Positions 12,545 to 63,727 of a stretch of 64,000 nucleotides of DNA are shown here, piece by piece. The number at the start of each line of letters is the position of its first letter. Positions within the stretch are counted from its first letter, which is position 1. The position numbers and the translations under genes were made by a program. Source of the stretch: a virus (Duplodnaviria; Caudoviricetes); IMG/VR virus record IMGVR_UViG_2756170314_000001, positions 1-64,000 of that record; one strand, written 5' to 3'. The notes below the pieces were generated by a model, which was given only the letters and a program-made list of their open reading frames with translations, was not told the origin of the DNA and did not search any database.

Positions 12545-13003
12545 TTAGTTAGCATACTTGAACAAGTAACCCCCTTCACGATACTTATAACCTGCAGCAG
12601 TTTCTTCTCCAGTCTTAAGAGATCGCTTTACCCATCCAACGTTTGTAATTTTATTTTCAGTTACCCAATTAAAGGTTTCCATAAGACCATCAATAGTTTG
12701 AATTAATTGGCCATCTTTATAAACTTCAATTTTTCTCTTCTTAGCCCCACGTTTTTTTTGAGAAGTTTTTTCTTCTTCTGGCATGGTATTTCTTTCTGCT
12801 TCAATCACCTTCTTGATTTGATCGTTATTAAGCATTGCTGCAGTTTCTATTCCAAGATCTTTAGCTTCAGAAATCAATTGGGTTCTTTCAATCGCATAAA
12901 TCAGTTGGGACCGGTTCATATCCCAACGACCAGTAATGTTCATTTCCTTTGCAATATTACGTAGTTCCTTAACAGATTTAACGGATAATTCAGTAGTTGC
13001 CAT
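12545..13003 (-). CDS. Rho-N-like nucleic-acid-binding protein
   Basis: SVKELRNIAKEMNITG...MNRSQLIYAI Rho-N pattern; AATCGGAGG RBS. Confidence 0.6.
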   Translation of the reverse strand: MATTELSVKSVKELRNIAKEMNITGRWDMNRSQLIYAIERTQLISEAKDLGIETAAMLNNDQIKKVIEAERNTMPEEEKTSQKKRGAKKRKIEVYKDGQLIQTIDGLMETFNWVTENKITNVGWVKRSLKTGEETAAGYKYREGGYLFKYAN

Positions 13004-13084
13004 TTAAGTTACCTCCGATTTTATGTAAAAATTAATTTGATTTATCTCTCTTATATAAATTATTATACCATTTTATGGAAGATT

Positions 13085-13098
13085 CGTACATATGTTCG
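13085..13098. promoter_or_regulatory. LexA (Cheo)-like box overlapping the -35 of a SigA-type promoter; identical copy at 45042-45055
   Basis: - strand CGAACATATGTACG versus B. subtilis consensus CGAAC-N4-GTTCG. Confidence 0.6.
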
Positions 13099-13500
13099 CG
13101 AAATTTACTTCTATTTTCATGGTCTTAAATTGGATAATTATAAGAAGGTCCGGATAAAAAATCATATTCCGTCGCCAAAAAAAGATGCTTTACAGCATCC
13201 TTTCTATATTTATTCAAATAAACATGTTTATAACAATGCAGAACATCCAAGTGAATACACAGAACATAACAAAAATGATCATCCACATAACATCTGATTT
13301 TGTAGAGAGCTCGAAATAATCACAAACGGATTCAAAAGCTGATTGAATAAGAAATAGAAACGGAAAAGTTAAGGTTCCGATTTTTCTTCCAAACTGTTAC
13401 ACTCTTTTTCTTGGAAATTTGTAAAATAAAGTCCATTATGGTATATTCTCCTTATCGACAAATCCTTATTAGAAGGTCAGGTGTGGGAACACCTGGCTTT

Positions 13501-13794
13501 TTATTTATTTATTTTAACGACTTTTAACTGGCCATACTTATCTTTGTAATAGAAGTAAGTGTAGGTTCTTCCTTCCTTCAGGTGTTTTCTGTACCATCCA
13601 TTGTTTGACATTAAGACTTTATACTTCTTTCCAACTTTAATCTCAAAGAAAGTAGGATCGGCATATCCGTTAAACTTACCTTTAACATGGTAGACCTTTC
13701 TTTTCTTCGTAGCATCAGCTTTTTCTGGATGAACCCCAGCGACAGTTGTAAAAACAAGTCCAGCAGCGAGTACTCCAGCAATTAATTTTTTCAT
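13501..13794 (-). CDS. Small basic secreted protein
   Basis: Signal peptide MKKLIAGVLAAGLVF...ADA; RBS AAGGAG. Confidence 0.65.
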   Translation of the reverse strand: MKKLIAGVLAAGLVFTTVAGVHPEKADATKKRKVYHVKGKFNGYADPTFFEIKVGKKYKVLMSNNGWYRKHLKEGRTYTYFYYKDKYGQLKVVKINK

Positions 13795-13846
13795 TTCTCA
13801 TTTCTCCTTTTGTTATAAAATCAACATTTTATGTCTCTAAAAGCAT

Positions 13847-14743: not shown

Positions 14744-14868
14744 AATATGACCTCCAATAAAGTAGTTGAATTATTTATCTCTTACATAATTAATTATAAT
14801 CCAACATATGGAAATCGTACATATTTTTTGTAGAGATTTGTCGAATTTCGGCAAGAAAAAAGGGCAGC

Positions 14869-16863
14869 CTAAGCTACCTCAATTTTCTTAAGTTTCCTTG
14901 ATGGAGAAGCATAAACACCAGTAGCGTTTCGGCCATTCGTTAAGTTGAAGTTTTTTGTATCAACGGTTAACTTTGATTTATCTGTCAGGAGATTTAGGCT
15001 AACATCATCCTCTAAAGTAATCATGTCTAACAGGTCTTGCTTTAAGCAGTATGAGTTTTTAAGGATCGTCCGGTTACCCTGGAATGCTTCTAGATTGATT
15101 TTTGCGATCCGGTTATTCGAATATGCTGCAATAATAAACTTATGAGTGCTATCTAAAATAGAATACGAAACAATAGTTATATTTTTATCCCGAATCATAT
15201 TCGGCAGATACGTCCCAAGAGCATTGGCTCGTGTCTCGTCAATATCCTTAAGTTCGACTTTATGACAAACTCGGTCGGATCCAAAGATAAGGATCTCGGC
15301 TTTATTTTCTGTTTCAAAAACTTTTAAAACTTCATCCCCAGGTTTTAGATTAGGTTCCTGATTCCCTTTAAACTTGTAGCAATAACCTTCCTTAGTGAGA
15401 TAGATTGTTACTGCATAGTTCGGTACTTCTTCTACAAGACGAACTGGTTTAACTTCTGTAAGTTCAACGATTTTTGTTCGTCTCTCCTTGCCGTACTTCT
15501 CCTTAGTTTCATTTAAACCCTTAATAATGATTTGATTTATTTTATCCTGACTTTCAACAATTAGTTTATAGTTCTCGATTGTTTCCTCGAATTTATCAAT
15601 GTCCTCAATTTTCTTAATGATGTACTCTCTATTAATGTTCCTCAACTTCATGTTGGCCACTTCTTTAGCTTGTTCGAAGTCTATTCCAAAATGCTTTTGA
15701 AGATTTGGTTCAATCTGATCTTGGCTTGATCTTCTAATGATTTCAATGGCTTCATCAATATCCAACAATACCTTCTCAAGACCTTGGAGTAAGTGTAGTT
15801 TACGAGTCATTGTTTCAATATCGTGAGACAATCCACGCTTAATACAAGTTGTTCTCCATTCAAGCCATTTATCAATTGTTTGCCAAACTCCTAAGACTTT
15901 GGGAAGATCATCAACAAGCATATTCATGTTCGCTGAATATGTTGATTGCAACGGAGTAAATTTATAAAGCTTTTCAAGCAGCACATTCATATCTGTATTT
16001 CGACGGGCAGTTATAGTGATTAGCATTCCCTTCAAGCCTGTCAGATCTTTAACATCAGTTACTTCTTTTAGCTTGCCAGCTTTATTTAATTCAACGATTT
16101 TTTCAATAATTGCTTCTCGTGTTGTAGAGTATGGAATTTCAGTAATGTGTATCTCATTCTTTACAATTTCGGCTTTTCCACGAATCTTAACTGTTCCCCG
16201 ACCTTCCTCGTTCAATTGGCGGAATACATTATCTTCTTTAACAATTAATCCCCCAGTTGCAAAGTCTGGAACTAGAACCGTTTTTTCTTCCGTCTCAATA
16301 TACTTAACAATGGCTTCAGTTAATTCTTTTAAATTGAATGATGGAATAGACGAACTAAAACCAACACCAATCCCTGAATTTGAGTATGCAAGTATTGAAG
16401 GGAATTTAACAGGAAGTACTTCAGGCATCTTCATTGTCCCATCATAGTTATCTATAAAATCAACAACATTCTTATCGAAGTTCTGCATCATATCAATTGA
16501 AATTTCAGAGAGCTTAACTTCAGAGTATCGATCAGCTGCCGGCATTAAATCTCTTGAAGTGTATTGTCCAAAGTTTCCTTTTCCTTCGAGCATGGGAATG
16601 ATATGTCGATCTTTCTGAACCATACCAACCATACTTCCATAAGAACTGCCATGAGGATGTAACTTCATAACCTGTCCAGCAACATTTGCTGATTTCGTGA
16701 ATTTAAAGGCTTTTTGTAAGTACATAGAATAAAGTATTCTTCGATGAACAGGTTTAAGTCCATCTCGAAGATCAGGTAGAGCTCGATCGAGTAAGATATA
16801 GGCAGAATACTCCATCATATTGTTTTCAATGATTTGTTCTATGTTTTTGTTTGTAGTAGTCAA
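14869..16863 (-). CDS. Type IIA topoisomerase subunit A (GyrA/ParC-like)
   Basis: RALPDLRDGLKPVHRRILY, HPHG, AADRY catalytic Tyr, PDFATGG; TTG start with GGAGG. Confidence 0.93.
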   Translation of the reverse strand: MTTTNKNIEQIIENNMMEYSAYILLDRALPDLRDGLKPVHRRILYSMYLQKAFKFTKSANVAGQVMKLHPHGSSYGSMVGMVQKDRHIIPMLEGKGNFGQYTSRDLMPAADRYSEVKLSEISIDMMQNFDKNVVDFIDNYDGTMKMPEVLPVKFPSILAYSNSGIGVGFSSSIPSFNLKELTEAIVKYIETEEKTVLVPDFATGGLIVKEDNVFRQLNEEGRGTVKIRGKAEIVKNEIHITEIPYSTTREAIIEKIVELNKAGKLKEVTDVKDLTGLKGMLITITARRNTDMNVLLEKLYKFTPLQSTYSANMNMLVDDLPKVLGVWQTIDKWLEWRTTCIKRGLSHDIETMTRKLHLLQGLEKVLLDIDEAIEIIRRSSQDQIEPNLQKHFGIDFEQAKEVANMKLRNINREYIIKKIEDIDKFEETIENYKLIVESQDKINQIIIKGLNETKEKYGKERRTKIVELTEVKPVRLVEEVPNYAVTIYLTKEGYCYKFKGNQEPNLKPGDEVLKVFETENKAEILIFGSDRVCHKVELKDIDETRANALGTYLPNMIRDKNITIVSYSILDSTHKFIIAAYSNNRIAKINLEAFQGNRTILKNSYCLKQDLLDMITLEDDVSLNLLTDKSKLTVDTKNFNLTNGRNATGVYASPSRKLKKIEVA

Positions 16864-16983
16864 GTTAAAGTTACCTCCTAGTTATTGAAAATTCTCATTA
16901 CGTAATCTTTATATCTAGTCTTTCTAAAACGTAAATGAGAATAAAAAAGATTGGCAATTTAATTGCCAACCTTAGAAAAGCTA

Positions 16984-18900
16984 TTAAATTGCTTCTTCAA
17001 CATACTTATAAAGATTTTCTGAAATATATTCTCTTCTGTTATCAACGCTGCTACCCATCCAAGTTTCTAAGGACTCAATCATATTTTCAGCGTCTTCAAC
17101 TGTTACTTTTATAAGGTTCCGGGTCTCTTCATTCATCGCTGTTTCAGCCATAGTAACTGCATCAAGTTCCCCAAGACCCTTACAACGAGCAATTGTGTAT
17201 TTACCCTTTAAAGTGTTGATCTTTTGGTCCTTTTCACTTTCTGAATAGAAGTAGATCATTGAATCATCTTCCATTTTGATTTCATAAAGTGGTGTTTGAG
17301 CTATATAAACATAACCTTCTTCAATTAGCTTCGGCATTAGTCGATAGATCATTGTAATGATTAAACATGCTATTTGAGCTCCATCAGAATCTTGGTCAGT
17401 AGCAATAATAATCTTTCCATAACGAAGGTTATTAATATTAAACGTATCAAGGTCCTTGTTCTTTTTGTCAGTTTGAATACCACAACCGAGAACCTTAATT
17501 AGATCAGTGATAATTTGGTTTTTAAAGATAGTCGTATAATCTGCTTTAAGGCAGTTCAGAATTTTTCCGCGAAGTGGATAAGCTGCCTGATAAACTGCAT
17601 CTCGAGCTAAAACAATTGAACCTAACGCAGACTGGCCTTCAGCAATAAAGATTTCAGAGTCTTTGCCATGCTTCTTACAGTCGACCAAGTTCGCCACTTT
17701 ATTTCCAATACCATCGACCTTTTCACTCAGTTTCTTTTTGAGCTGCTGTTTAGCCTTTTGAGACTGAGTATTATGTTTTTGAACTTCAAGTAAGTGATTA
17801 ACGAACTTTTTGAAGCCTTTTTCATTTTCTATTTGGAAAACTTCGAGAAGTTGGGTAGTATGCCTTTGGGCTAATTTTCGATAAAGCTTCTTATCAGTTG
17901 AAAGTTTTGTTTGGTTTTTAAATTCAACTTTATTTGATAAAGCCACCAAGACAAAACTAACGCTCGATTCAATATCTTCTGTTGTAAAAGAATTAATTCC
18001 TTTAGGGAATAATTTATTTTCTCTAGCATATTTATTACAAAAGGTTTTTATCCCAGTTATAACGCCGTCATTAAAGGAACCCCCATCAGAAAGGTAGGTT
18101 AAGTTCAAATAAGACTCCTGGATTGGATCGGTTGTTGTTGAAAAAGTAAGTTTTATTTGAGTTCGTTCCCCACCTTCTTCGTATAAAGATTCTGGTGCTG
18201 TAATCACTGGAGAAGTTGTTGTGCTGCCAATCAGTTCCTCAAAATACTCTTCAACGCTATCATAATGGAAAGTCTCTTCTTCACCGTTATGAATGAAGAT
18301 TAATTTAATCTTATGTGAACCAATAGCAAACCTTCTTACAATTTCTCGGACGACATCTTTGTCATAAGTAACCATAGGATAAACTTCAGGATCCAATTTA
18401 AAAGTTATAACTGTGCCGTGACGGTCTTCACTTATTTTTTCTTTTGTTAAGTCCTGGACGAGTTCCCCACCATTTTCAAATTTTAAGGTGTGTTTATATC
18501 CATCGTAATAAGATTCGATATGAAAAAACAACGAAGTAAAGTTGAGAACTGTCGCCCCTACACCATTAGTACCAGTAGTAGTCTGTTCGCTCGTTTCATA
18601 TTTTGTAGAGGCAAACAGGGTTCTAAACAATAATTCATAGTTTTTAACACCATCGGTTTCCCCATCAATGGGTATCCCTCGACCGGTATCTGTAACCCGA
18701 ACAGTTTGAAGGTCATCAAACAATTCAAGGGTAACTATTCCTTCATCAAAATTATTTATAACTTCATCAGTTCCATTAGCAAGGATTTCTTTCAAACCAT
18801 GATAATAGTTATCTGCTGATCCATACCAAATTGCAATTTTTTCTCTGGACTTCTCTCTATCGTCCAATCTTTTAATCTTGTCTTGATTAGTAGTAGTCAA
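16984..18900 (-). CDS. Type IIA topoisomerase subunit B (GyrB/ParE-like)
   Basis: GHKL motifs (EILANGTDE, DTGRGIP), EGQSA, PLRGKILN, TDQDSDG, KGLGE. Likely TTG start at 18900 after AGGAGG. Confidence 0.93.
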   Translation of the reverse strand: MTTTNQDKIKRLDDREKSREKIAIWYGSADNYYHGLKEILANGTDEVINNFDEGIVTLELFDDLQTVRVTDTGRGIPIDGETDGVKNYELLFRTLFASTKYETSEQTTTGTNGVGATVLNFTSLFFHIESYYDGYKHTLKFENGGELVQDLTKEKISEDRHGTVITFKLDPEVYPMVTYDKDVVREIVRRFAIGSHKIKLIFIHNGEEETFHYDSVEEYFEELIGSTTTSPVITAPESLYEEGGERTQIKLTFSTTTDPIQESYLNLTYLSDGGSFNDGVITGIKTFCNKYARENKLFPKGINSFTTEDIESSVSFVLVALSNKVEFKNQTKLSTDKKLYRKLAQRHTTQLLEVFQIENEKGFKKFVNHLLEVQKHNTQSQKAKQQLKKKLSEKVDGIGNKVANLVDCKKHGKDSEIFIAEGQSALGSIVLARDAVYQAAYPLRGKILNCLKADYTTIFKNQIITDLIKVLGCGIQTDKKNKDLDTFNINNLRYGKIIIATDQDSDGAQIACLIITMIYRLMPKLIEEGYVYIAQTPLYEIKMEDDSMIYFYSESEKDQKINTLKGKYTIARCKGLGELDAVTMAETAMNEETRNLIKVTVEDAENMIESLETWMGSSVDNRREYISENLYKYVEEAI

Positions 18901-19013
18901 GTTAAGCTTCCTCCTAAAATCTTTTCCCATATATTGGGATTAGGTTCTATAAACATTATATCCTTCGTTTATGAGTTCGTAAAACGATTTTAGGAGTATT
19001 TTTAGGTTAATTT

Positions 19014-19877: not shown

Positions 19878-19930
19878 TTTTGTTGCTCCTTTTTGTTGAA
19901 GTCCGAAGCAACACCTGATATAATTGAATT

Positions 19931-20121: not shown

Positions 20122-20151
20122 TTGACATATTGGGTATGTATTAGGTAAAAT
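20122..20151 (+). promoter_or_regulatory. Near-consensus SigA promoter of the putative multi-target sRNA
   Basis: TTGACA (20122-27), 18 bp, TAAAAT (20146-51); no ORF downstream. Confidence 0.75.
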
Positions 20152-20158: not shown

Positions 20159-20225
20159 AGTAGTTGAGTTAAAGTTATTTATCTCATAGTCCTACTCTTT
20201 TTCTCCGATTAGAGTGGGATTTTTT
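20159..20225 (+). ncRNA. Putative ~67-nt trans-acting antisense sRNA complementary to more than 20 phage translation-initiation regions
   Basis: Promoter upstream; 11-bp stem (20188-98/20211-21) with G-U pairs and a U tail valid only on the + strand; seeds AGUAGUUGAGUUAAAG, UUAUUUAUCUC and loop UUUUCUCCGAUU. Confidence 0.75.
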
Positions 20226-20235
20226 GTGTTCAATT

Positions 20236-21631: not shown

Positions 21632-21745
21632 GGTTAATTCCCTCTTTCTTAGTAGTTGATTTGTTATTTATCTCTCTTACATTATTAATTATACCATATA
21701 TTGGAAGTTCTGTACATAAAAAATACGGAATTTAGGTAAAAATTT

Positions 21746-22204: not shown

Positions 22205-23028
22205 GCAAACATCTCCTCAAACTTCCTACCGTATTTTAGAAGCAATCCAACTGAATTAACGTAGTAAGATGGTTTATCCTCACCCAGTTCGGCAGAACTT
22301 ACAGTGGAATATCCAACATTCTCTAAGCATTCTTTCATTTCTTCTGCTTTACCACCTGTACAAACAATAGGGTAGTCATAATCGATATTGCTGCAAGTCT
22401 TAGCAAAAGTCTTCGCCAAATCCATTATTGAATTGTCGATCGTCCCACCATTAATAGTATGGCTATCCATTTTACTTATAGACCCATTGATTAAATAAAG
22501 GACGTTTAATGTCTTAGAACCAGCATCTACAATGACGCAGTTTAATGAATCTGAGAAGTTTAGGGCTCCTAATCCCTCTGCAGCCATCACGATATTATGT
22601 ACAGTGAATTTGAATGACTTTCCTTCAACGATAACTTCTCTTTCTCCTTCAAAATGTTGAACGAAATATTTTTTATCTGTAACCATACTTTCATATGGGC
22701 AAGTTAGAATTAAGTTAAATTCTTTCTTTCCAGTCTCTTTAAAGATTGTATAGAGAGCATATACTAATCGAATTTGACCTTCCATATGGCCTTTTCTTGT
22801 ATTGCCGAAATACATTTGTTCTTCACGGCCGAAATAGAAGTTCTTAACGGTTTCTCCAACATAATAATCAAGGCCGTTGTACTCTACTCTTTCCATTCCC
22901 TCGTAATCTTCTAAAGGCTTGTAGCTATGGAGAATAGAAGGGAAACTGCCGACCTTAATTTGTTTTTTGTCCTTATAAGCGTACTTCGTACTAAAATTCC
23001 CAATATCAATTACAGTAGTTAGTGTCAA
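22201..23028 (-). CDS. alfA: Actin-like partition ATPase AlfA
   Basis: IDIGNFSTK, AEG, VDAGSKT and TGGKA actin motifs; 275 aa recognised as pLS32/pBS32 AlfA. Confidence 0.95.
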   Translation of the reverse strand: MTLTTVIDIGNFSTKYAYKDKKQIKVGSFPSILHSYKPLEDYEGMERVEYNGLDYYVGETVKNFYFGREEQMYFGNTRKGHMEGQIRLVYALYTIFKETGKKEFNLILTCPYESMVTDKKYFVQHFEGEREVIVEGKSFKFTVHNIVMAAEGLGALNFSDSLNCVIVDAGSKTLNVLYLINGSISKMDSHTINGGTIDNSIMDLAKTFAKTCSNIDYDYPIVCTGGKAEEMKECLENVGYSTVSSAELGEDKPSYYVNSVGLLLKYGRKFEEMFA

Positions 23029-26089: not shown

Positions 26090-26136
26090 AGTGTATTCCT
26101 CCGATTAGTAGTTGAGTAAGGGATCCTCCGATCCCT

Positions 26137-26248: not shown

Positions 26249-26458
26249 TTATTGTTCAGTCACCACAAGGTCTTTATCTTTGTAGTACTCGACGGTAACT
26301 AAGACAATATAATATTCCACTTCTTTTTTAGTCTTCTTCGTGATCGTGTGGGATTTAAGGTATTCACCATGTTCCGCCTTCTGTTGGTCTACAATGGCTT
26401 CTGCAGCTACTTTAGTATCCGCAAAGTATTTAGTAGTGGTTTGCATAGTAGTTGTCAT
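26249..26458 (-). CDS. Hypothetical protein
   Basis: AATCGGAGG RBS; 69 aa. Confidence 0.65.
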   Translation of the reverse strand: MTTTMQTTTKYFADTKVAAEAIVDQQKAEHGEYLKSHTITKKTKKEVEYYIVLVTVEYYKDKDLVVTEQ

Positions 26459-27006: not shown

Positions 27007-27292
27007 AGTAGTAGTTGAGTCCTTTCTCCGACTTAAATAATATTTTATTTATATTATTATTTAAGTTGTTATTTAATTCTTTATATTTATATCTGGTTAT
27101 TGAAAAACGTAAATCATTTATTACATTATTTTTTAAATAAATTACTTATGACCGTCATGACTGAGGGTATTATATCGGTTATAACAGAAATGTAAATCAT
27201 GACTGCGATATTTTGCATTTAGATGGTTGGTTATATTATTAAAGCAAACTAATTTCCTTGTAGAGCCCTGTAGAAGCAACAAAAGCCGCAGA

Positions 27293-30200: not shown

Positions 30201-31135
30201 GTAATTGTTCCAAGTTTGGATCTTATCTCATTCGTATTATCAACAAGAACATCTAATAGTTCCTCGTCAAAGTACTCAAGCAATTCTTCATATCCCATAA
30301 CGTAAGTTGTGGCGTAAAATTCATCAACTTCTCTCTCCCCTTCTGATGCTGTAAGGTATATTTTATGTGCCGGAGCATATTTTTTATTTAGATAATGGGC
30401 ATCAGTAGAGACAATACATTTAACGTTGTAAGCTTCCGACACTTTTAGCATCATTTCATTAGCTACTAATTGGTCACGGTTTTTTGATGGCTGCAGTTCA
30501 AAATAAAGATCTTCTCCAAAAACACCTTTTAACCAAACAATGAAATCATGTACTCGTTTTTTATTTTCAGGAGTAGGATTATCATGATATGAAATTAGAG
30601 ACTGAGGAAGTTCTCCACCAACACAAGCTGTACAAGCAATAATTTCCCCTTGGTACTCCTGCATTAAAGACATTAATTCATCTTTGTACGTAGGAACACG
30701 TTCCATTCCACGGTAGAAGAAAGAGTTGTACCAAGCTTTAGAGCTAAGTTTTTTCAGACCTTCATATCCTTTTTGTGACTTGGCGATTAATATAAAGTGG
30801 TGGAAACTAATCTTTTGGTTTAATGATTTTTTCTCCATGGTATCTTCTTTATCAACCAGGTAAATTTCATTGCCGAACCCTAGTTTAAAATCTCCAAGAC
30901 GCTCTTTATTCTCTTCAACATACTTATGAGCTTTTACATGGGATGATAAAGTTTCGTGATCTGTTATGACTACTCCACTCAATCCAATCTCATGGCAGTA
31001 ATCAATCAATTCTTCTGGTTTATTAATCGCATCTCTTAGTCGAAAATTTGATGCATCAGTGTGTGAATGAGTTAAGAAAGGTTTTTTCTTATACTTTTCT
31101 ATACTTCTATTGATACTTCGTAGTAGTCGAGCCAT
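27293..31135 (-). CDS. dnaE: DNA polymerase III alpha subunit (DnaE-type)
   Basis: PHP domain (HSHT, ITDHE, TDAHY); VSRGSA, PDIDLD, GQHASG, KLDYL, YSFSLPH. Confidence 0.95.
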   Translation of the reverse strand: MARLLRSINRSIEKYKKKPFLTHSHTDASNFRLRDAINKPEELIDYCHEIGLSGVVITDHETLSSHVKAHKYVEENKERLGDFKLGFGNEIYLVDKEDTMEKKSLNQKISFHHFILIAKSQKGYEGLKKLSSKAWYNSFFYRGMERVPTYKDELMSLMQEYQGEIIACTACVGGELPQSLISYHDNPTPENKKRVHDFIVWLKGVFGEDLYFELQPSKNRDQLVANEMMLKVSEAYNVKCIVSTDAHYLNKKYAPAHKIYLTASEGEREVDEFYATTYVMGYEELLEYFDEELLDVLVDNTNEIRSKLGTITFAQETKVPKAHIPKYEMSQLFVPHYMEYEYIRKYAESRYDIDRYYLHLIAEGMVAKKQDLNKENLSRINTELDELYHITENLGQPLSSYFVLSKDVVDLMWQVSLVGVSRGSACCFYLNYLLDIVQLNPIKFNLPHWRFLSKERPELPDIDLDSEGSKRHEIIQITKDHYGEENVLNMGTFTTEGTRSTVLTSCRGLGIDKDIAHNIANLIPTRKGGIWSLHECFYGNPKEGTKPAKEFCREVDKYEGLKEAMLSIEGLISGRGQHASGVIIFPDGYIKQNAMMKTTSGLPITQFDAEDSIYMGGLKLDYLSINALDRIRTALDLLLEHGKIEWQGSLRATYNKYFHPDVLEMESPKMFDLLFKGHVLNAFQFETAVGQQALTKINPRSFDELCAGNSLMRLSTDGEQPLDKYVRFKNNIQDWYEEMKTASLNEEEIKILEEHLLDRYGICDTQEGLMLLAMDERIAGFSLTQANKFRKAVAKANQKLIEDQRIKFYEGGEKTGARKVFLDYVWNKELKPQFGYSFSLPHIAGYTMILMIEMNICHRYGAIYWKTACLSVNAGMIGETEKGTKYGAIAKAVGDMKGDILNPDINLSNKEFTPLEEENKILFGLKPIAGLGTDAIEKIIEHRPYKNFGDFFKKIVDPGLISEAKVVSLIKAGCFDSFYPNRRLLMIDFVKAITPKKEKLTMVQLPTIIHLADKQRFGTELEVYKFRNKLFGRNKVPMTREIEQEFMDFLQAYPYQVDYEFKDGKLCVDQKTFDKAYKEIIEPLRMWVTSPEAAEQFNKIKMKEFWAKHCQGTIEAWEMETLLFYSKKHELDYMPLHNYFNIANFNDLPSNPVITGYKKNRRGNDVPQYKIDVIAGTVVEKNKQKSLVHVLTQDAGVVTVRYSKGQFAHYDKKVVRVHGKEKEVLDPSWFERGSKLVLVGFRRGEEFVLRTTGTQFKHSTMKIKGYDSEKLYLQMAKVAE

Positions 31136-33475: not shown

Positions 33476-33936
33476 TAAAGGACTCCCTCCTTGACAAGAT
33501 CGTTGGCAATTTCCTCAGGAGTCTTATATGTTGTGTCTACAATGATCTTCTTCATTGGGGACTTATCAAAATAAAATTTATAAAAATGCTTATGCAAAGT
33601 ATAATCAAGAATTTCGTGGCCGGTCTGAATGCATCGATCTATCAGGACTTTTGTGTCACAATCAAGGTAAATTACGAGTACGTCTTCCATCTTAGCTAGG
33701 TGTTTTTCTAAATCATCATAGTTATCCCATAATTGAGGATCCCGACTAAACAGGTCACAGTATGTTTTAAAACCAATCGGTCCCCTATCGACTACAATAT
33801 GTTTGTAGCAAGTGGCTTTATTTATAGCATGTTGTAAAGTTGATTTTCCCGAACGATCAACACCTTCAAGGATGATGATTTTTGGCTTAACAAATTCAGG
33901 AGTCGGCGCGACAACACAAGTAGTTGAGTTAGTCAT
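33475..33936 (-). CDS. Deoxynucleoside monophosphate kinase (dTMP kinase-like)
   Basis: LEGVDRSGKST P-loop and VDR motif. Confidence 0.8.
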   Translation of the reverse strand: MTNSTTCVVAPTPEFVKPKIIILEGVDRSGKSTLQHAINKATCYKHIVVDRGPIGFKTYCDLFSRDPQLWDNYDDLEKHLAKMEDVLVIYLDCDTKVLIDRCIQTGHEILDYTLHKHFYKFYFDKSPMKKIIVDTTYKTPEEIANDLVKEGVL

Positions 33937-39944: not shown

Positions 39945-40004
39945 AAATTTTTCCTCCTAGTAGTTGAATCTTCGTTATTATATCTGGGGTTTTTAAAACG
40001 TAAA

Positions 40005-41124: not shown

Positions 41125-42717
41125 TTAAAAAACGGGCACTTCTTCAGCCGAATCTTCAGTTGCTTCGATAGCATATTCAATATCCATTGGGTGAACATCT
41201 AGCAAATTAAAATCGTAGTCTGTAACGAATAATGGCTCTTCTCTCATAGTTCCTAAATTCATGTAAGTCCAGATAATTACGTTACTGTACTTTCCCCCAC
41301 GATTTTTATAAACCCAATGAGAGTAGTTTGGTTTTTTGTTAGTAAAACCGGTTTGCAAAATGTGCTTTAGATTATGATGATCTGAAGCTCCTGCCCTAAA
41401 TGTAAGTATGCCAAAGTCAACTTTATCTGCTGTGGCTTGTCCACCACGAAGGGCTGAAGGGTCTCTATTTTCAATATCCTTAGAACCTCTATTTAACTGA
41501 GTCGAAGAAGCAATAAAAATATCGTACTTCTCAGCAAGAATCTTTAATGATGATGAAAACTGATGAAGAATCTGGTCTTCCCGAAGATGATTCCCAAACG
41601 CACTTGCCATTGTTCTGGAGAGTTTCGGGGTCATTTGAATATAGTCGAAGGCACACTCTTGAATATTGTTTTCAATAATATGTCGTTCAATAATTGTTTC
41701 AATATCTGAAATTGAGAAGTCATTTACATATTCGCAGAAGATAGGAGCCCTCTTTAAAATTTCGATTGCTTTTTTGAGCCTTCTTAAAACTACTTCAGAA
41801 TACTTACCATCTTTAATTACGTCTTCATCGACTCCAGAAATGAAAGCAAGCATAATTGTTTGAACTTCTCTTTTTACAAGCTCCGTTGATATGAATAGGG
41901 TAGGGATTGATGGACCATTGCTTACATATTTGTTTTGGTCAATATCAAAAATTTCGTCACACGAAGCATTACACATATCAGCTAATGCTTGACGAGTTTT
42001 CCCCGTCCCCGTACCAGCTGAACGCAGCATAAGCTTTGTTTTCCGTTTTCCACGAAATATTGTGTTATAGAACTTGTTCGTGAATGGGTTTCCGTACTCA
42101 GGATCTTCGTCTAACTCATCCAGAAGAGTATCCAAGTCATCACCAGCCATAAAGCTTTTTGTCTCTTGGCCGATATTAAATTCATCTTTAATCTTAGTCA
42201 ACTTAATTGTGTAATGGTCGATTATTTCATTAACAGTCATGCTGTCTATTTTTTTCATTCCATCATTCCGAACCTTTAAGTCAGTAGACTTCCAATCATA
42301 AAGATCTGTCACATCAATTCCATTTAATACGTAGTGTCTTAATAAAGAAATCTTTTTCAGTCGATCATAGCTGCTTTTAAAGGTATTTTCATTTGCATGA
42401 GCTATTGATTTTCTTATATAAGATAAACCATCATTTTTTTCCCAGATCTTATAGTGCTGAGGAAAAGAAGCTAGGTAATTATCGAGGTCAATTTCATCAA
42501 TCTTAGTGACTTCATAATTTGAGTAAGCGATATTATATATTGAAGAAAACACAATTTGATGAAATTCATGAGCAAAGTCTTTTTCTGTAATGATAATCTC
42601 CGAATCTCTTAAAAGATGAGGGTTTTTACAAAGTGAGCCTATAACAGAATAGACTGCACGAGTAGGGTTTAAAGCTTTCATTACATTATCAGTAGTAGCT
42701 GAGTTAACTTCTGTCAT
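41125..42717 (-). CDS. DnaB-like replicative helicase
   Basis: AGTGTGKT, FISTEL, FDYIQ and STQLNR. Confidence 0.9.
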   Translation of the reverse strand: MTEVNSATTDNVMKALNPTRAVYSVIGSLCKNPHLLRDSEIIITEKDFAHEFHQIVFSSIYNIAYSNYEVTKIDEIDLDNYLASFPQHYKIWEKNDGLSYIRKSIAHANENTFKSSYDRLKKISLLRHYVLNGIDVTDLYDWKSTDLKVRNDGMKKIDSMTVNEIIDHYTIKLTKIKDEFNIGQETKSFMAGDDLDTLLDELDEDPEYGNPFTNKFYNTIFRGKRKTKLMLRSAGTGTGKTRQALADMCNASCDEIFDIDQNKYVSNGPSIPTLFISTELVKREVQTIMLAFISGVDEDVIKDGKYSEVVLRRLKKAIEILKRAPIFCEYVNDFSISDIETIIERHIIENNIQECAFDYIQMTPKLSRTMASAFGNHLREDQILHQFSSSLKILAEKYDIFIASSTQLNRGSKDIENRDPSALRGGQATADKVDFGILTFRAGASDHHNLKHILQTGFTNKKPNYSHWVYKNRGGKYSNVIIWTYMNLGTMREEPLFVTDYDFNLLDVHPMDIEYAIEATEDSAEEVPVF

Positions 42718-44590: not shown

Positions 44591-44977
44591 TTATGACTGT
44601 TTCACTTCATAATTGTGATAAACCCAAACAGGGTTGGTTCCTAACAAAGCCAGTTTAAATTTGCTTAATATCTTTGTGGCTTCCTCGGTAAGACTAATTG
44701 TATCTCCGTCTTCATTACTTGAAGCGAACATAATATTCCCACAGATCACTACATCCCAATCGGTGATAGATGGATTTGGGGTGTTTTTTATAATAAGGGA
44801 TGGCATTGGGGGCTCTTCCTTTAAAAGAAATCCATCGTCGTACCACACGTCTAACTCCTCAATGCTTGTCAAAGCAAGAGTTCCTTGGATTTCTTTCTTT
44901 AGAAGATCATAAGTGCTGCCAACGCCCTCCTTAAAATTAATCAATTCTCCTGGCTTTAAAGTTGCGTAGTTGAGCAT
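44591..44977 (-). CDS. DUF3846-like hypothetical protein
   Basis: VWYDDGFLL...ICGNIMF...DGDTISLT pattern. Confidence 0.6.
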   Translation of the reverse strand: MLNYATLKPGELINFKEGVGSTYDLLKKEIQGTLALTSIEELDVWYDDGFLLKEEPPMPSLIIKNTPNPSITDWDVVICGNIMFASSNEDGDTISLTEEATKILSKFKLALLGTNPVWVYHNYEVKQS

Positions 44978-49772: not shown

Positions 49773-49842
49773 AACCTATTTCCTTTCTTGCAGTAGTTGA
49801 GTTAAAGCAAGAGAGGACGACATAATCATCCCCTCGCAATTA

Positions 49843-50877
49843 TTAAAGAATTTCTTTCATTTTTTGAATTGCAACGAATAACGGCTGAACTTGTTCTTTG
49901 GAAGCATCGGTTAACTTATTGCCGGCTCCAAATACTTCATCTACAATTCTATTAACTTCATCCATACGATTTGCTTTATGGAACTGAACACCAAGCTCAC
50001 GAGCTTCTTGCATCAGAGCATCATAATCCAGCTGTTCTTCTTGTAATCCAACTGATTCTTTTTCTTCTTTCAATTGAGAAGGATCAATTAGATTAATTGC
50101 ATCAGTAACGGCTTTTTTATATGCTTCAGCATCCAAAGGAATTACTGGAGCAATACCTTCAAATGTTGAACCGGCTTGCCATTGAAGTGTTTCTCGAAGA
50201 TGGATTACACGATGTTCATTCATGTGTTCATCAGTTGTAACTGTCATGAACAAGATGTTATCAACCATTTTATTGATTGGAGCCATGACTTTATCTTTTA
50301 GATCCGGAACATACTTTTCAAATTGATAGTATTGTTCTTTGGTCTTTTTATCAGTTACAAGAGTCATAGTGTCGTTTACCTGTTCTTGAAGGACCCCTGA
50401 AACAGGAATCTTAGTTGTGACTTGAGTTGCGTGAGCAATAAACACAGGAGTGTAACCGAGTCGTTCAATTTGCTGAAGATTTTTCTTCCAATCATTTTTA
50501 AGATCAACCCAGTCTTTTCCCCATTCAACCTGGCCGAACTCTGTTTTGTCATACTTTGAAAGGATATATGTTTCAAGCATTGCGTAAAGGTTTTCTACCG
50601 TATCAATGCAAACAACATCGTATCGTTCTTTAATTTTTTTGTTCTGCAACTGAGCTAAAACCTGAAGATATTCAATCCAGTTTGAAACGTATTGAACATT
50701 GGCACCAACAAGCACTTTATGCCGTTTTTCTGTGGCGATAAACAAAACTCGATCTCCATAGAGCTTATGAACAAAAGATGTTTTACCGATTTTAGGAACA
50801 CCATAAATAAATGAAGTGTAGGATGCTAAATCCGTACTTGCCTTAATCGGCTCTAAATTTAATAAGTTAATTGCCAT
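49843..50877 (-). CDS. AAA_24/Sak4-like ATPase (ssDNA annealing)
   Basis: YGVPKIGKTS, CIDTV, FIAH; near the SSB gene. Confidence 0.8.
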   Translation of the reverse strand: MAINLLNLEPIKASTDLASYTSFIYGVPKIGKTSFVHKLYGDRVLFIATEKRHKVLVGANVQYVSNWIEYLQVLAQLQNKKIKERYDVVCIDTVENLYAMLETYILSKYDKTEFGQVEWGKDWVDLKNDWKKNLQQIERLGYTPVFIAHATQVTTKIPVSGVLQEQVNDTMTLVTDKKTKEQYYQFEKYVPDLKDKVMAPINKMVDNILFMTVTTDEHMNEHRVIHLRETLQWQAGSTFEGIAPVIPLDAEAYKKAVTDAINLIDPSQLKEEKESVGLQEEQLDYDALMQEARELGVQFHKANRMDEVNRIVDEVFGAGNKLTDASKEQVQPLFVAIQKMKEIL

Positions 50878-50945
50878 AGTTGAGTTCCTCCGATTTGTTT
50901 AATGTGATTACTTTTTATTTATATCTGGTTCTTGGAAAACGTAAA

Positions 50946-53194: not shown

Positions 53195-53253
53195 GTGATT
53201 TTCCTCCGATTTGATAGTAGTTGAGTTATTTATTTTTATAAGACTCCCATGAG

Positions 53254-55358: not shown

Positions 55359-55937
55359 TTATGCTGATTTTGAATCGTCAACGATAAACGTAAAATTCTT
55401 AACAACCGGTGATCTTAACATCGCTGCATCATCAGCCATCGCTTCACTCATGCTTTTCACAACTTTAATTCTTTCATTTTCGAATTCCGGATAAGATGTG
55501 AGAATAATATCTCCAATCTCTGGTTCCACAGGATTTTCAACTGTTAAGTACTTTGTAGGAACTTTTTTAGATAAAGCCCGGTATAAAGCGATCGCTTTAC
55601 CAATATGCTCATTAAAGGTATCTCTCGGATCACATTTAGCAATACCTTTTGCGTAAATTCTTCCAGACCTATAACCTTTTAATAGAACTGTTACGACACG
55701 TTTTTTTCTATTGATGTGGTATTCAGGAACAGTAGCATAAGATCCAACTTCATATCCATCGCACATAGTGGAATCTTTTAAGTTTTCAAGGTCTGACTTA
55801 GCATCTTCAATAACTTTCTTTCTAGCAGTAATAACTCTAGGTGACTTATTAGCTCTCTTAGTGAGTTCTTCTGCTGCTTTGGAAATAAATTCGTTTAATT
55901 CAGTAGTAGTCAAGTTTTTGAAATTTACCTTCTGCAT
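55359..55937 (-). CDS. Conserved phage hypothetical protein
   Basis: ATG 55937 after AATCGGAGG; GIAKCDPRDTFNEHIGKAIALYRA motif. Confidence 0.65.
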   Translation of the reverse strand: MQKVNFKNLTTTELNEFISKAAEELTKRANKSPRVITARKKVIEDAKSDLENLKDSTMCDGYEVGSYATVPEYHINRKKRVVTVLLKGYRSGRIYAKGIAKCDPRDTFNEHIGKAIALYRALSKKVPTKYLTVENPVEPEIGDIILTSYPEFENERIKVVKSMSEAMADDAAMLRSPVVKNFTFIVDDSKSA

Positions 55938-60397: not shown

Positions 60398-60919
60398 TCA
60401 CTTTAAGATTTTAACTTGAATATCTCTAACACCAAATTCAATGCACTTGTCATTAGCATTTAAATAGACATCTATTTTGTTTCCTTTAATAGCTGATCCA
60501 GTATCTTCGGCCGTATATACACCATTAAGGTGTTCATATCCTTCAGGAAATTTAATTTCAACTTTAGATCCTAACGGAATTACACTTGGATCAACTGCAA
60601 TCGTACGACCTTCTTGAACTTTCGTTCCTGTCGCCGTAACAGTTCCCATTGAATATGCTGTTGAAGTAAAATGTTTATATCCCTCATAAACCCCTGATTT
60701 ATGTTTTTCAACTCCAACTTTCGTGTTTATTTCTTGTCCCGGAAAAATCAAAGAAAGATTTTTGATTTGTGGGTTAGCTTCTGCCAATTCTTGCAGAGAC
60801 ATATTATTTTCCCTCGCAATTTTTGACATTGTGTCCCCAGGTTTCACTTCTTGAGCAAACGTGGGAGAAGCAATTAGCATCGATACTACTAATGTCGATA
60901 CGGCAATTAGTTTTTTCAT
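60398..60919 (-). CDS. Secreted LysM plus 3D-domain cell-wall protein (YocH-like)
   Basis: Signal peptide; VKPGDTMSKIA LysM; TAY...IAVDPSVIPLGS...AEDTGSAIKGNKIDV. Confidence 0.88.
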   Translation of the reverse strand: MKKLIAVSTLVVSMLIASPTFAQEVKPGDTMSKIARENNMSLQELAEANPQIKNLSLIFPGQEINTKVGVEKHKSGVYEGYKHFTSTAYSMGTVTATGTKVQEGRTIAVDPSVIPLGSKVEIKFPEGYEHLNGVYTAEDTGSAIKGNKIDVYLNANDKCIEFGVRDIQVKILK

Positions 60920-61067
60920 AGGTTCTTGCCCTCCTGTTTTTATTTGGTTCATTCTTTTTCTTTCAGAACCTTTTATACTTATATCTATGAATATGAATTC
61001 GTAAATCAAAACAGTATTACATTTGGATTACAAAGAAAAGGCCTGACACATAGCCAAGCCCATAACG

Positions 61068-62348
61068 TTATGAATAAGACACTTCATCTTTATCATCTCG
61101 AATTCTATTTAATGAAGGCTGCCGTAAAGATAAACCTCCATGTTCATTTTTACTTTCTTGAAAGTATTTAATCTCAACAATCTTCCCAACCACCAAGGAT
61201 GGATCTTTCCAAAAATCAACTTTCCATTTCTCTTTTAATCCAGCTACGGCCACTCGATGTCCTTTGTAATCAACAATAATTGATCCACATTTACCTCCAC
61301 GTATATCTTCCACAACATCTAAACAACGTAAATCTGCTTCTTCTTCTGGTTTTACTTTTAAAATGCTAGGAGACTTTTTCAATTCAAATATTCCATCCGA
61401 TAAATGAATTATTAATCCTTCTTCCCCACGGCCAATTGCTTCAAGAAACAAGTCATCAATAACATCCTTGTCATTTCCAACATAGAATTTAGGAACAACC
61501 GAAATTAACGAATCTGCCGGCAGAGACTTCTTGATCGTTTCTTCTAAAAAAGAGCGTCTAGTTTTGTAAGGAACATCAAAAACACCTTTTTCATAATCAT
61601 CAATTGGAATCATGTCGAACAACAAAAATCTAACGTCTTTTTTAATTCCGTGTTTCTTCAAACGACTTTGAGTTGCTCGGAATAAGTCCGATGAGGAAAG
61701 GTTATCTCTATTCACGTTTACGAGTTCTCCTTCATAAACAAATCCTGTCGGAAGTTTTTTCATTAACTCTTCGAGTTCAATTAATCCTTCGTATTTGGCA
61801 CCGGTGGTTGTAATGAATTCGCTGCCTTCTTCCAAGTTCTTCGTTGTTGATCTGAAGCCATCGACTTTAAGTGAGACAATGAACTCTTCTCCTTTTGTAA
61901 GGTGTTTTTCAGGATTGTATTTTTGACCTTTCATAACCTTGTGTTTACTGATAAACCCTTTACCGTATACTTTATTCAAAGTAGTTGAAGAGATTCCAAT
62001 CGGCAAATCTTTTGTTAATATAGATTTGGCCAGTTCCCGTTCTTCTTCTGTTTTAAGTTGCTTTAAAAAGATCTGAATTGATTGGATTATTTGATCAGAT
62101 CCGGTATTGTAAAGAATTACGTAAGCCATAGCATCAAAGATGGTTTCAAGTTGAGTATAAGTCGGCAAACAAACTTCTTTTTCGATCTTCTTTTTTGCTA
62201 AACCCGTTTTAACAAGTGGGTCGTAAACAAACTTGAAAATCTCCTTTAAACCCTCAACATTTTCGTATTTTCTTAGTAATTCTTCTTTTCCTTTTCGGCT
62301 TGATTCATTTTTAATCTCCTTAAAAATTTCAACGTATTTCTTCATCAT
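61068..62348 (-). CDS. ATP-dependent DNA ligase
   Basis: KVDG motif I, YEGEL, LFDM, EGLII, LKVK; likely ATG at 62348 after AATCGGAGG. Confidence 0.92.
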   Translation of the reverse strand: MMKKYVEIFKEIKNESSRKGKEELLRKYENVEGLKEIFKFVYDPLVKTGLAKKKIEKEVCLPTYTQLETIFDAMAYVILYNTGSDQIIQSIQIFLKQLKTEEERELAKSILTKDLPIGISSTTLNKVYGKGFISKHKVMKGQKYNPEKHLTKGEEFIVSLKVDGFRSTTKNLEEGSEFITTTGAKYEGLIELEELMKKLPTGFVYEGELVNVNRDNLSSSDLFRATQSRLKKHGIKKDVRFLLFDMIPIDDYEKGVFDVPYKTRRSFLEETIKKSLPADSLISVVPKFYVGNDKDVIDDLFLEAIGRGEEGLIIHLSDGIFELKKSPSILKVKPEEEADLRCLDVVEDIRGGKCGSIIVDYKGHRVAVAGLKEKWKVDFWKDPSLVVGKIVEIKYFQESKNEHGGLSLRQPSLNRIRDDKDEVSYS

Positions 62349-62477
62349 AGTAGTTGAGTCCTCCGATTTTTCTTTATTTATTTCGAGTAACGAAATAATA
62401 TTATCACTTCTTTTTTGAGTCGTACACATTGATTACAGAATATTGCAAAAATAATAGCTAGATATTTGAATCTAGCT

Positions 62478-62780
62478 CTATACACATGCAGCCATTCTTT
62501 TTGCCATCCTTTTTCTTTTCTCAATAGCTTCATGGTTATTATTACGAGATCGTTTAATAACGGTTGTAAGTATCCAGCGATTTCTTTCTTTTACAAAGAT
62601 GAATTCCTTACTATTTCTAGTAAAGATATGCCTCACATTACCGTTATTCACTATCTGCTTTATATTTAAGTTTCTTACATCACGCTTAATCCTACTTTCA
62701 ATATTTTTACGGCATTCGCCTACTCTTTGTTCATATCGCTGTATTACGTGATTAGTAATGATAAAGTCTTCAAACATCAT
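62478..62780 (-). CDS. Small basic hypothetical protein
   Basis: ITNHVIQRYEQRV pattern; SigN promoter and RBS. Confidence 0.6.
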   Translation of the reverse strand: MMFEDFIITNHVIQRYEQRVGECRKNIESRIKRDVRNLNIKQIVNNGNVRHIFTRNSKEFIFVKERNRWILTTVIKRSRNNNHEAIEKRKRMAKRMAACV

Positions 62781-63727
62781 ATCTCCCTCCGATTAATGTA
62801 TGTAGTAGTTGAGTGAAAGTGGTGCTGCTGAATTGGTTATCTAACAACACCACTTTAGAAATGTCTGATAATTGGTATGATTATATCTGGCTCTATTAAA
62901 ACGTAAACCACATTAGCGAATTAATTTAATATGCCAATGCTAAAGCATTGTCTATTCGAAATTACTTACGTAATTTCTCATATGTTTATTTAATTTATTA
63001 TTTAATTTATTCATTAATAATTAATTGATATATAAAGACCATAGCTATTCGTAAGCATCCATGAAGATTAAGTTTAGAATTCTTACGACCACATCTAAAC
63101 AACTATACGTTCTTCTCCAGTGTTGATTTATAAGTTAATTCTTATTGGCTCAAACACTTAAAGCACATGACAACGGATAACATTACTAATCAACTGCAAG
63201 TCAATGATAAGGATGGTCAATGACGATTGATTAGTCTATCCATCGATCCCAGCGAAGATGAAGAATCTTCACCACCATTAATTGCTTAATGGTATTTGCA
63301 ACGGCGAGATAACCTTGGAGTTATTTGATAAAGGAGTGAACTCTCAGCTTCAAATGTCTCCGTGATTATTGAGTTGTGCAATATATTTATATCTGAGAAT
63401 GGTGAAACGTAAATTGGTAGGGAGAAATCAAACAAGAGTGAGGAAAATTCACACACGAAAAATTCGGGTGGAGTTGAAAATGATTGCCGCCTGCTCCGAG
63501 AGTTGGATCGAGGTTTGAAAAAGTAGCCGCCTACCCTTTCGGGAAAAAAATCGGTCTCGACAGGAATAACTGGAGGAGGTCCGTTCACACCAACCATCCC
63601 AAAACGCCCAAATTGTGTTGAAATTTAGGAGAAGGAACAAGAATTTTGTCATTCTTTGTTATAGAATAATAGTTAGATGGATATAATAAACATATAGAGA
63701 AAATAACCTAGTTGAGGGGGAAAATTT

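Follow-up and report, generated by a model that had tools for sequence, protein, structure and literature searches.

Why does one ten-base word stand at the starts of about twenty genes of a single plasmid? The DNA analysed here (the window) is the first 64,000 bases of an 84,613-bp phage-like plasmid, which megablast assigns to the pBS32/pLS32 family of Bacillus subtilis (plasmids of ~84 kb; 41 records match at 95-99.8% identity). Plasmid-borne, DNA-damage-triggered cell death has been studied in pBS32 of B. subtilis NCIB 3610 as a model. From ~11 kb to 63 kb of the window nearly all genes are on the minus strand, so the word, AGTAGTTGAG on the plus strand, reads CUCAACUACU in the mRNAs. We call this word the tag; gene starts are those of the NZ_CP028216.1 annotation. 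Judged from the sequence, the tag is probably the landing site of a plasmid-encoded antisense small RNA, which would act in trans and hold its targets down. That the RNA pairs with the tag appears highly likely, and that such pairing, once granted, means repression is quite likely.

In the window, AGTAGTTGAG with at most one mismatch is found 20 times against 3.62 expected, and 18 of the 20 matches are on the plus strand. Among 100 shuffles the maximum is 11 and none reaches 20. An earlier reading of this DNA, made from the sequence only, had listed 22 such words, all close to start codons. A word of this kind is indeed present at all 22 places, and the 5' ends of the tags span -36 to +24 of the annotated minus-strand starts (Table 1). 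The register given for 44966 and 50877 was off by 1-2 nucleotides (nt), with the word present at both. The same reading had said that a few sites pair only with a 1-nt bulge; 23014 and 37229 are of this kind, requiring either the bulge or a shift in register. Its number of about 20 start regions holds for the 20 sites that reach a duplex energy of -18.7 kcal/mol or better with the RNA described below. The other two, 26447 and 50877, are weak partial matches, and both have a second motif, AATCGGAGG.

The tag is much rarer away from the starts. Start windows were defined as -45 to +35 (5040 nt in total), leaving 60,673 nt of mRNA-sense strand. At one mismatch or less, 14 tags are in the start windows and three in the remainder, a ~56-fold difference in density (binomial p 1e-13). 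The matches at 27718, 51879, and 61980 are within genes and look like chance, and the exact match at 20159 is rejected as a target, being the small RNA gene itself. Blind enrichment of 8-mers in the start windows yields just two families. One is the tag (CAACTACT, 12 in start windows and three elsewhere; CTCAACTA, nine and two) and the other is ATCGGAGG (14 and none). The recurrent N-termini that had been pointed out (MTTTN, MATTE, MTNSTT, MTQTT, MTLTT, and MTEVNSATT) do derive from tag-bearing start sequences. The tag is read as ACU-ACU in topoisomerase A and B, as CGA-CUA-CUA in DnaE, and as CUC-AAC-UAC in the gene starting at 44977. It is thus read in three frames, and selection is not on a peptide. 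The proposed list of targets needs one change: the gene at 44591-44977 (minus strand), which had been taken for a single-stranded DNA-binding protein (SSB), matches Pfam DUF3846 (E 2.8e-07) and has no SSB/OB match. Both topoisomerase subunits, DnaE, the helicase, NrdE, the ligase, ArdC, and AlfA are tagged as claimed. Also as claimed, there is no strong site at sigN, whose start region scores only -11.1 kcal/mol. Beyond the window, at 66372-66381 of the genome, a full site CTCAACTACTAAATCGGAGG is followed by ATG at a minus-strand open reading frame starting near 66345.

The exact plus-strand copy of the tag at 20159 lies away from any minus-strand start. A candidate RNA gene is found at this place. 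The predicted RNA has a free 5' tail (AGUAGU), a weak first stem-loop (nt 7-28) containing the rest of the seed, a terminator stem-loop (nt 30-63), and a U run. Its fold energy is -19.4 kcal/mol (z -4.2). The stretch is present in all 41 related plasmids. Compared with the window, the most divergent of them, pLS32 and MB8_B7, have three substitutions in the 7 nt between the -10 element and A20159 and none in the RNA body except for the length of the U run. This fits a constrained transcript starting at or next to 20159. From these features we infer that the small RNA is transcribed. Rfam gives no match at gathering score in the whole window, and its sub-threshold matches around 19850-20300 (21 bits or less) belong to unrelated families.

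A convergent gene, 20236-20601 on the minus strand, ends in a terminator at 20113-20089. Its 3' untranslated region (UTR; 20089-20235) hence includes a perfect antisense of all 70 nt of the small RNA and could be a sponge for it or a substrate for double-strand RNase. This pair does not resemble a type I toxin-antitoxin system: the convergent gene encodes 121 amino acids with only a sub-threshold match to DUF2703, and the overlap is confined to its 3' UTR.

Table 1. The predicted small RNA gene and the tag sites of the window. Energies are for the duplex with RNA nt 1-28; "from" gives the first tag base relative to the gene start.
Feature	Position	Strand	Remarks
Candidate small RNA, ~70 nt	20159..20228	+	own promoter, intrinsic terminator, 5' end complementary to tag
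Predicted sigma-A-type promoter of small RNA	20122..20151	+	TTGACA, 18 nt, TAAAAT; 11/12 consensus bases
Terminator-loop word CUCCGAUU	20203..20210	+	complement of extended Shine-Dalgarno AAUCGGAG
Rho_N-domain gene, start 13003	12992..13001	-	GGCAACTACT in mRNA from +3; -21.0 kcal/mol; AATCGGAGG Shine-Dalgarno in start region
ArdC-like zincin gene, start 14743	14761..14770	-	TTCAACTACT from -27; -22.7 kcal/mol; leader GAGATAAATAA also pairs with RNA nt 17-27
Topoisomerase subunit A, start 16863	16855..16864	-	CTTGACTACT spanning TTG start; -26.9 kcal/mol; ~22 contiguous pairs
Toprim topoisomerase subunit B, start 18900	18892..18901	-	CTTGACTACT spanning TTG start; -18.7 kcal/mol
Hypothetical gene, start 21631	21651..21660	-	ATCAACTACT from -29; -25.6 kcal/mol
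alfA, start 23028	23014..23023	-	ACTAACTACT from +6, GCTTTAACTTG directly upstream; -20.5 kcal/mol; orthologous GR1 site kept
Thioredoxin gene, start 26089	26107..26116	-	exact tag from -27, then AATCGGAGG at once; -20.3 kcal/mol
Hypothetical gene, start 26458	26447..26456	-	weak partial GACAACTACT from +3; -13.4 kcal/mol; AATCGGAGG Shine-Dalgarno
dUTPase, start 27006	27010..27019	-	exact tag from -13; -18.8 kcal/mol; GR1 site at -10
DnaE-like PHP polymerase, start 31135	31122..31131	-	CTCGACTACT from +5; -27.2 kcal/mol
P-loop kinase-like gene, start 33936	33919..33928	-	exact tag from +9; -22.6 kcal/mol
YfbR-like nucleotidase, start 36333	36357..36366	-	CTCAATTACT from -33; -21.8 kcal/mol
Nucleoside deoxyribosyltransferase, start 37243	37229..37240	-	ACTCAAACTACT, 1-nt bulge; -22.5 kcal/mol; same bulged site in GR1
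Hypothetical gene, start 39944	39959..39968	-	TTCAACTACT from -24, few nt past SigN -10 element; -23.5 kcal/mol
DnaB helicase, start 42717	42694..42703	-	CTCAGCTACT from +15; -21.9 kcal/mol; CTCAACTACT in pLS32 and GR1
DUF3846 gene, start 44977	44965..44974	-	CTCAACTACG from +3; leader AGAGATAAATAACTTTAA also pairs with RNA; -31.9 kcal/mol
nrdE, start 49772	49792..49801	-	exact tag from -29; 17 contiguous pairs; -24.3 kcal/mol; CTTGACTACT at equivalent GR1 place
AAA ATPase gene, start 50877	50877..50886	-	weak partial AACTCAACTATG; -14.9 kcal/mol; AATCGGAGG Shine-Dalgarno
Hypothetical gene, start 53194	53216..53225	-	exact tag from -31, then AATCGGAGG; -19.8 kcal/mol
Hypothetical gene, start 55937	55905..55914	-	CTTGACTACT from +24; -19.9 kcal/mol
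ATP-dependent DNA ligase, start 62348	62349..62358	-	exact tag from -10, AATCGGAGG ahead; -20.6 kcal/mol
Hypothetical gene, start 62777	62804..62813	-	exact tag from -36; -20.0 kcal/mol

How specific is the complementarity? The whole plasmid was scanned on both strands in 40-nt windows for duplex energy with RNA nt 1-28. Clusters reaching -18 kcal/mol number 25 in the minus sense, among them 20 no more than 45 nt from an annotated start and the antisense of the RNA gene itself; the two plus-sense clusters are not near a start. This energy is reached by 20 of the 79 annotated start regions, and the distribution is bimodal (-18.7 or better, then -15.6 for the next). When the 28-mer is shuffled with dinucleotides kept (150 shuffles), the mean is 0.83 start regions and the maximum five, and its reverse complement, its reverse, and its complement give no start region each. 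Nor does any of the 74 start regions of VPE25, an unrelated, AT-rich phage, reach -18 with this RNA. Pairing also outruns the 10-mer, and it does so differently from site to site: it is contiguous over 17 nt in nrdE and over ~22 in topoisomerase A, and is split as 17 + 9 around the Shine-Dalgarno and AUG of gene 44977. Outside the motifs, the mean longest common substring is 7.4 among target start regions and 7.2 among non-targets. Targets are thus no more alike than non-targets, and duplicated leader cassettes do not explain the pattern.

The same RNA is found in other elements. Searching with the SigN protein finds Geobacillus phage GR1 (OK896991.1, 79.4 kb; SigN 60.6% identical) and the IMG/VR viral contig L007 (SigN ~60% identical). 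In both, the RNA gene lies upstream of the replication gene as in the plasmid, with a sigma-A-type promoter and an identical 14-nt 5' end, AGUAGUUGAGUUAA. The linker and the terminator-stem sequence differ from those of the plasmid, and the loop CUCCGAU is kept. A pattern scan with seed and loop yields four further distinct versions of the RNA, plus one chance match without a terminator. Altogether, the six distinct homologues have one loop and six different stems, each of which folds into its own hairpin; note that the four versions were selected by seed and loop and cannot test the conservation of these parts. The -35 and -10 hexamers are kept in five of the six and the terminator in all six. 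RNAalifold reports compensatory changes in six of 12 pairs, on an imperfect alignment. Three of the six stems have U-G pairs, which would be A-C on the opposite strand and support this orientation. A covariance model of the RNA (R1) finds one copy per element, at 72-89 bits.

The 5' end is not folded in the same way in all six. In three folds nt 1-6 are unpaired, and in the others the free stretch is nt 1-7, nt 1-9, or nt 1-3 (or nt 1 only). Pairing begins at nt 4 in one version (L014), and in another (L013) the 5' tail is bound to the far 3' end. Most of the six folds leave at least nt 1-6 free and place nt 7-14 against a target-like downstream arm (UUAACUY). Overall, the 5' end is modelled as a toehold arrangement.

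More distant relatives were found neither by the SigN protein scan nor by the seed/loop pattern scan of genome contigs, and a SigN alignment scan of viral contigs gave no further relatives. VPE25, an Enterococcus phage whose SigN-like protein is 32% identical, has no homologue of the RNA (best R1 match 17.3 bits, E 1) and no tag. Its start regions have only promoter-like words plus AGAAAGTAGGAA, which replaces the canonical Shine-Dalgarno 8-10 nt upstream of seven starts (8738-29866). An antisense copy of AGAAAGTAGGAA is not seen in the first 45 kb of VPE25.

If the tag is recognised by RNA, changes that keep pairing should be favoured, and the sequence-only reading had described the variant tags as G-U-compatible. 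For this comparison sites were taken by Hamming distance of two or less, so that no substitution type is favoured; YTYRRYTRYT, the wobble pattern in fully degenerate form, matches too often to inform and was dropped. The 21 mismatches in start regions comprise 13 wobble-compatible changes, no other transitions, and eight transversions, with no T>C; a caveat to the comparison is that three CTTGACTACT sites overlap a TTG start codon. Elsewhere there are 15 wobble-compatible changes, three other transitions, and 29 transversions. At internal positions 3-9, a division from the terminal positions that was chosen after seeing the data, G-U-compatible changes are 11 of 12 at starts versus 13 of 36 elsewhere (Fisher p 0.0009). 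The numbers in GR1, whose sites are partly orthologous to those of pBS32, are 10 of 11 versus 12 of 43 (p 0.0002). The bias is weaker over all ten positions (p 0.02 in the plasmid, 0.03 in GR1), and terminal positions have none. The earlier preference for RNA-RNA pairing over a DNA operator thus came out ahead in each sequence-level test proposed for it, a support that is computational.

The second motif, AATCGGAG(G), is an unusual extended Shine-Dalgarno and is complementary to the terminator loop of the small RNA. The window has 14 copies of its complement, CTCCGATT, where 1.67 are expected. Of these, 12 precede minus-strand starts by 16-20 nt, another precedes a plus-strand gene, and the last is the RNA's own loop. 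The only two 8-mer families enriched at starts are therefore the complements of the two conserved unpaired parts of the RNA. The two motifs also tend to occur together: TCGGAG is found in nine of the 20 seed targets versus five of the 43 other minus-strand genes (Fisher p 0.005). Start regions with AATCGGAGG but no tag include those of thyX (32677) and of the gene at 53463. A Shine-Dalgarno followed by the tag, as at 33936, has its elements in an order colinear with the RNA; R1 ranks the antisense of the 33936 start region second in the window (33.9 bits). GR1 has 19 copies of AATCGGAGG on the coding strand and none on the other; 18 of them closely precede annotated starts, and the remaining copy lies opposite the RNA loop as its antisense. 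The plus-strand copy of AATCGGAG in the window (37383-37390) precedes a DUF3967 gene (start 37403), the only plus-strand gene inside the minus-strand block. With this AATCGGAGG Shine-Dalgarno, the loop module could reach the DUF3967 gene too.

Another line of evidence is how sites and RNA change between the plasmid and GR1. With the GR1 RNA, 11 of 106 GR1 start regions reach -18 kcal/mol or better (shuffles: mean 0.58, maximum three), and they include orthologues of topoisomerase A and B, DnaB, NrdE, AlfA, DnaE, dUTPase, thioredoxin, and DUF3846. Some sites have moved: the tag of the Rho_N gene is at +3 in the plasmid and at -31 in GR1, and tdk is tagged in GR1 only. Orthologous cores differ by wobble-type changes (plasmid/GR1: nrdE CUCAAC/CUUGAC, DnaB CUCAGC/CUCAAC, DnaE CUCGAC/CUCAAC). 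Past the shared 14 nt, the RNAs differ by a one-base indel, UUAAAG in the pBS32 type and UUAAG in GR1, and the topA, alfA, and nrdE targets change in step (CUUUAA versus CUUAA). This turnover of sites, the wobble-type changes, and the matched indel argue for selection on the pairing itself. Between the window and pLS32, the twenty 10-nt cores have, as judged by eye, a single change: at the DnaB site, G>A replaces a G-U pair by A-U and so preserves pairing. GR1 was isolated on Geobacillus stearothermophilus. It is syntenic with pBS32 over the replication/nucleotide module and has a complete structural module, which supports pBS32 as a phage-plasmid; its RNA locus (42644-42913) has no annotated feature.

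How the RNA would work can be outlined. It would be read from its host sigma-A-type promoter and end at its own terminator. The free first six bases would nucleate on the tag, and pairing would spread by opening the weak first hairpin. The loop word CUCCGAUU could add a contact with the extended Shine-Dalgarno AAUCGGAG(G) at 12 minus-strand starts. Translation initiation would then be blocked, and possibly the duplex would be cleaved too. Since ~20 genes have such a site on or next to their ribosome-binding site and start codon, a block of initiation is the most likely effect. In the quiescent plasmid the RNA may keep the DNA-damage-induced hyper-replication programme silent, setting a threshold that the burst of SigN-driven mRNA can overrun. 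Such a role as a brake is suggested by the list of targets, by the sigma-A-type promoter, and by a published effect of SigN on SigA: accumulation of SigN lowers SigA-dependent transcription (PMC10601692).

A broader version of this proposal would make the RNA the "immunity factor" of the phage-plasmid family. One constitutive 70-nt RNA with two pairing modules would silence the whole programme of replication and nucleotide metabolism at translation, acting on more than 20 genes that have the tag and/or the matching Shine-Dalgarno, and would set the all-or-none threshold of hyper-replication and cell death. It would be overrun by the flood of tagged mRNA, by SigN displacing SigA at the RNA promoter, and by read-through from tdk into the convergent gene, making a perfect antisense sponge. 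We regard this version as tentative, with somewhat less than an even chance of being right.

Several observations weigh against a small RNA that pairs with the tag and represses. Several sites are 25-36 nt ahead of their starts, where a ribosome footprint does not usually extend, and a simple block of initiation is uncertain there. Some tags are so near the SigN -10 element that the mRNA may begin inside the tag. As for expression, the assembled contigs of two RNA runs cover 19850-20449 in one piece and are hence uninformative on a small RNA. Two raw-read runs (one of ribosome profiling, Ribo-seq, and one classed as "other") have no plasmid reads, presumably because the strains are plasmid-free, and speak neither for nor against it. 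Duplex energies are inflated by the AU-rich RNA nt 15-28. The unbiased test of conservation consists of GR1 and L007 only, since four of the six homologues were found by the seed/loop pattern. The topoisomerase B site of the pBS32 type has the GR1-type CUUAA and fits the GR1-type RNA better (-22.7 versus -20.8 kcal/mol). Across orthologues, whole-28-mer energies of cognate and non-cognate pairs are mixed; the non-cognate ones are blurred by AU-rich pairing with promoter -10 words, and the contiguous extension beside the seed is relied on instead. Finally, the duplex-defined site windows have not changed significantly less than their flanks between the window and pLS32 (5/267 versus 62/2515, p 0.37), the divergence being too little.

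The off-centre sites lead to the best of the alternatives, in which pairing does occur but benefits the targets: the RNA would activate or stabilise them, as a helper of the SigN programme, by shielding 5' ends from a 5'-3' exonuclease or by opening inhibitory leader structures. Eight strong sites, 24-36 nt ahead of the start, lie off the Shine-Dalgarno, as this would have it. The tag at 39959 is close enough to the SigN -10 element to be at the very 5' end of its mRNA, and the four GAGATAAATAA leaders pair from their first bases. Nevertheless, in 12 of the 20 strong sites the tag reaches into the spacer between Shine-Dalgarno and AUG, the start codon, or the first codons, and the second module is literally an anti-Shine-Dalgarno. 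Also on this side, the RNA has a sigma-A-type promoter and is absent from the SigN promoters listed in Table 2 of PMC6751061. We consider activation unlikely.

It is clearly less credible that a plasmid or host protein recognises CUCAACUACU on mRNA or DNA, the small RNA being secondary or without any connection to it. A translational repressor or an operator would likewise show up as a 10-nt word at gene starts, and proteins too often tolerate transitions better than transversions. What speaks for the RNA instead is that changes are tolerated only where G-U is possible (no T>C, and the internal bias given above), that complementarity extends past the word differently at each site, and that the RNA indel is matched in three targets. 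Again, the position varies from -36 to +24 and over three reading frames, and a protein has no need for an exact antisense copy of the word at the 5' end of a conserved RNA.

Still less probable is a reading in which the tags have no shared regulator and are remnants of leader cassettes that were duplicated, the RNA itself being either a relic or a mainly cis-acting partner of the 3' UTR of 20236-20601. That 3' UTR is fully antisense to the RNA and some SigN promoters are near-identical copies (e.g., 33985 and 37283), but the target start regions share only the two motifs and promoter words, and the tags, in UTRs and coding sequence alike, are strongly enriched at starts and are kept or relocated in GR1 despite diverged flanks. 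Finally, the tag is close to ribosome-binding sites and might pair with ribosomal or other host RNA as a translational enhancer, an idea that we rate as very unlikely; the plasmid's own RNA already gives an exact, conserved complement.

The tag of this proposed small RNA should be distinguished from the promoters of the same genes. The SigN consensus is ATTTACGTTT ... CAGATATAAA (PMC6751061, Table 2). The tag as an element of the SigN promoter was rejected: it differs from this consensus and lies downstream of the promoter-like sites at variable distance. A scan with the consensus gives ~25 promoter-like sites on the minus strand, and many targets are the first gene behind one. Other targets are internal to operons (DnaB) or follow TATAAT-type leaders (13003, 14743, 21631, and 44977), and 11 SigN-type promoters precede untagged genes (sigN, tdk, thyX, nrdF, and others). 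The tag is thus gene-specific and in transcribed sequence, as expected for post-transcriptional control. The leaders at 13003, 14743, 21631, and 44977 share TATAAT, a few bases, and then GTAAGAGAGATAAATAA, which ends in a complement of RNA nt 17-27. By appearance these are early promoters of sigma-A type, and the RNA would pair with their transcripts from the first bases on.

The small RNA gene is near repN, and a role as a countertranscript in replication control was considered and rejected. The gene is upstream of the predicted repN promoter (TTTACG, 17 nt, TATAAT at 20074-20046, minus strand), and the repN start region has no site (-13.6 kcal/mol). A second small RNA candidate (~19931-20045, ~115 nt) is on the plus strand, with a promoter at 19896-19924 (TTGAAG, 17 nt, TG-extended TATAAT) and a terminator hairpin at 20009-20042. 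It is fully antisense to the repN leader (20039-19877, minus strand) and is probably the copy-control RNA of the plasmid. The same layout, with a different stem sequence, is found in GR1 and L007.

Regulators of this kind are familiar. Base-pairing small RNAs with a conserved seed and many targets include RybB and OmrA/B in enterobacteria and RoxS/RsaE and RNAIII in Firmicutes. The RNA described here is like them in being short, with its own promoter and intrinsic terminator, in having an unpaired seed that imperfectly matches many unlinked starts, and in having a second pairing word in a hairpin loop aimed at the Shine-Dalgarno. It differs from them in that no sequence or Rfam relationship is found, all predicted targets are on its own element, and the main target word is an arbitrary 10-mer at ~20 starts, at times in the first codons, rather than a derivative of the Shine-Dalgarno. 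The c4 RNA of P1/P7, the CI RNA of P4, and sar of P22 are RNA immunity factors of phage-plasmids and satellites. Each acts on a single operon at one or two sites, and in the case of c4 and CI the RNA is processed out of the very transcript under its control. Again there is a small antisense RNA of a prophage-like element against repeated words in its own lytic or replication transcripts, while here the RNA is a separate gene with ~20 dispersed sites. Copy-control countertranscripts such as RNAIII of pIP501 and RNAI of pT181 are likewise small RNAs with stem-loops and a constitutive promoter beside a replication initiator gene. Unlike them, the RNA at 20159 is upstream of the repN promoter and has no repN site; the ~19931-20045 RNA fits that role.

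The nearest case is on pBS32 itself, where cis-antisense transcripts overlapping sigN, asiN, raise the threshold of the SigN programme (PMC10601692). The two are antisense RNAs of the same plasmid and regulon, but the one proposed here is a small RNA aimed in trans at downstream genes of the regulon and has no site at sigN. A literature search on small RNAs of pBS32/pLS32 and on phage GR1 returned two SigN papers and no account of this RNA or tag. Of antisense RNAs, the 2023 paper (PMC10601692) has only those transcribed in cis to sigN. The text of the 2019 paper (PMC6751061) does not mention non-coding or antisense RNA, and its supplementary Rend-seq data may show the transcript. As far as these searches reach, the RNA family, the size of a regulon within its own replicon, and the matched pair of motifs have no published description.

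What would this mean for the plasmid? Published work deals with how the SigN regulon is transcribed and how cis-antisense RNA controls sigN (PMC6751061, PMC10601692), and leaves open how the regulon stays harmless and which layer sets the threshold. If the proposal is true, a trans-acting RNA at ~20 regulon starts adds a post-transcriptional layer to this control. A mobile element would then have written a common address tag into its own gene starts, even into first codons, for joint control by one small RNA. The same RNA and tags in Geobacillus phage GR1 tie the pBS32 family to true phages.

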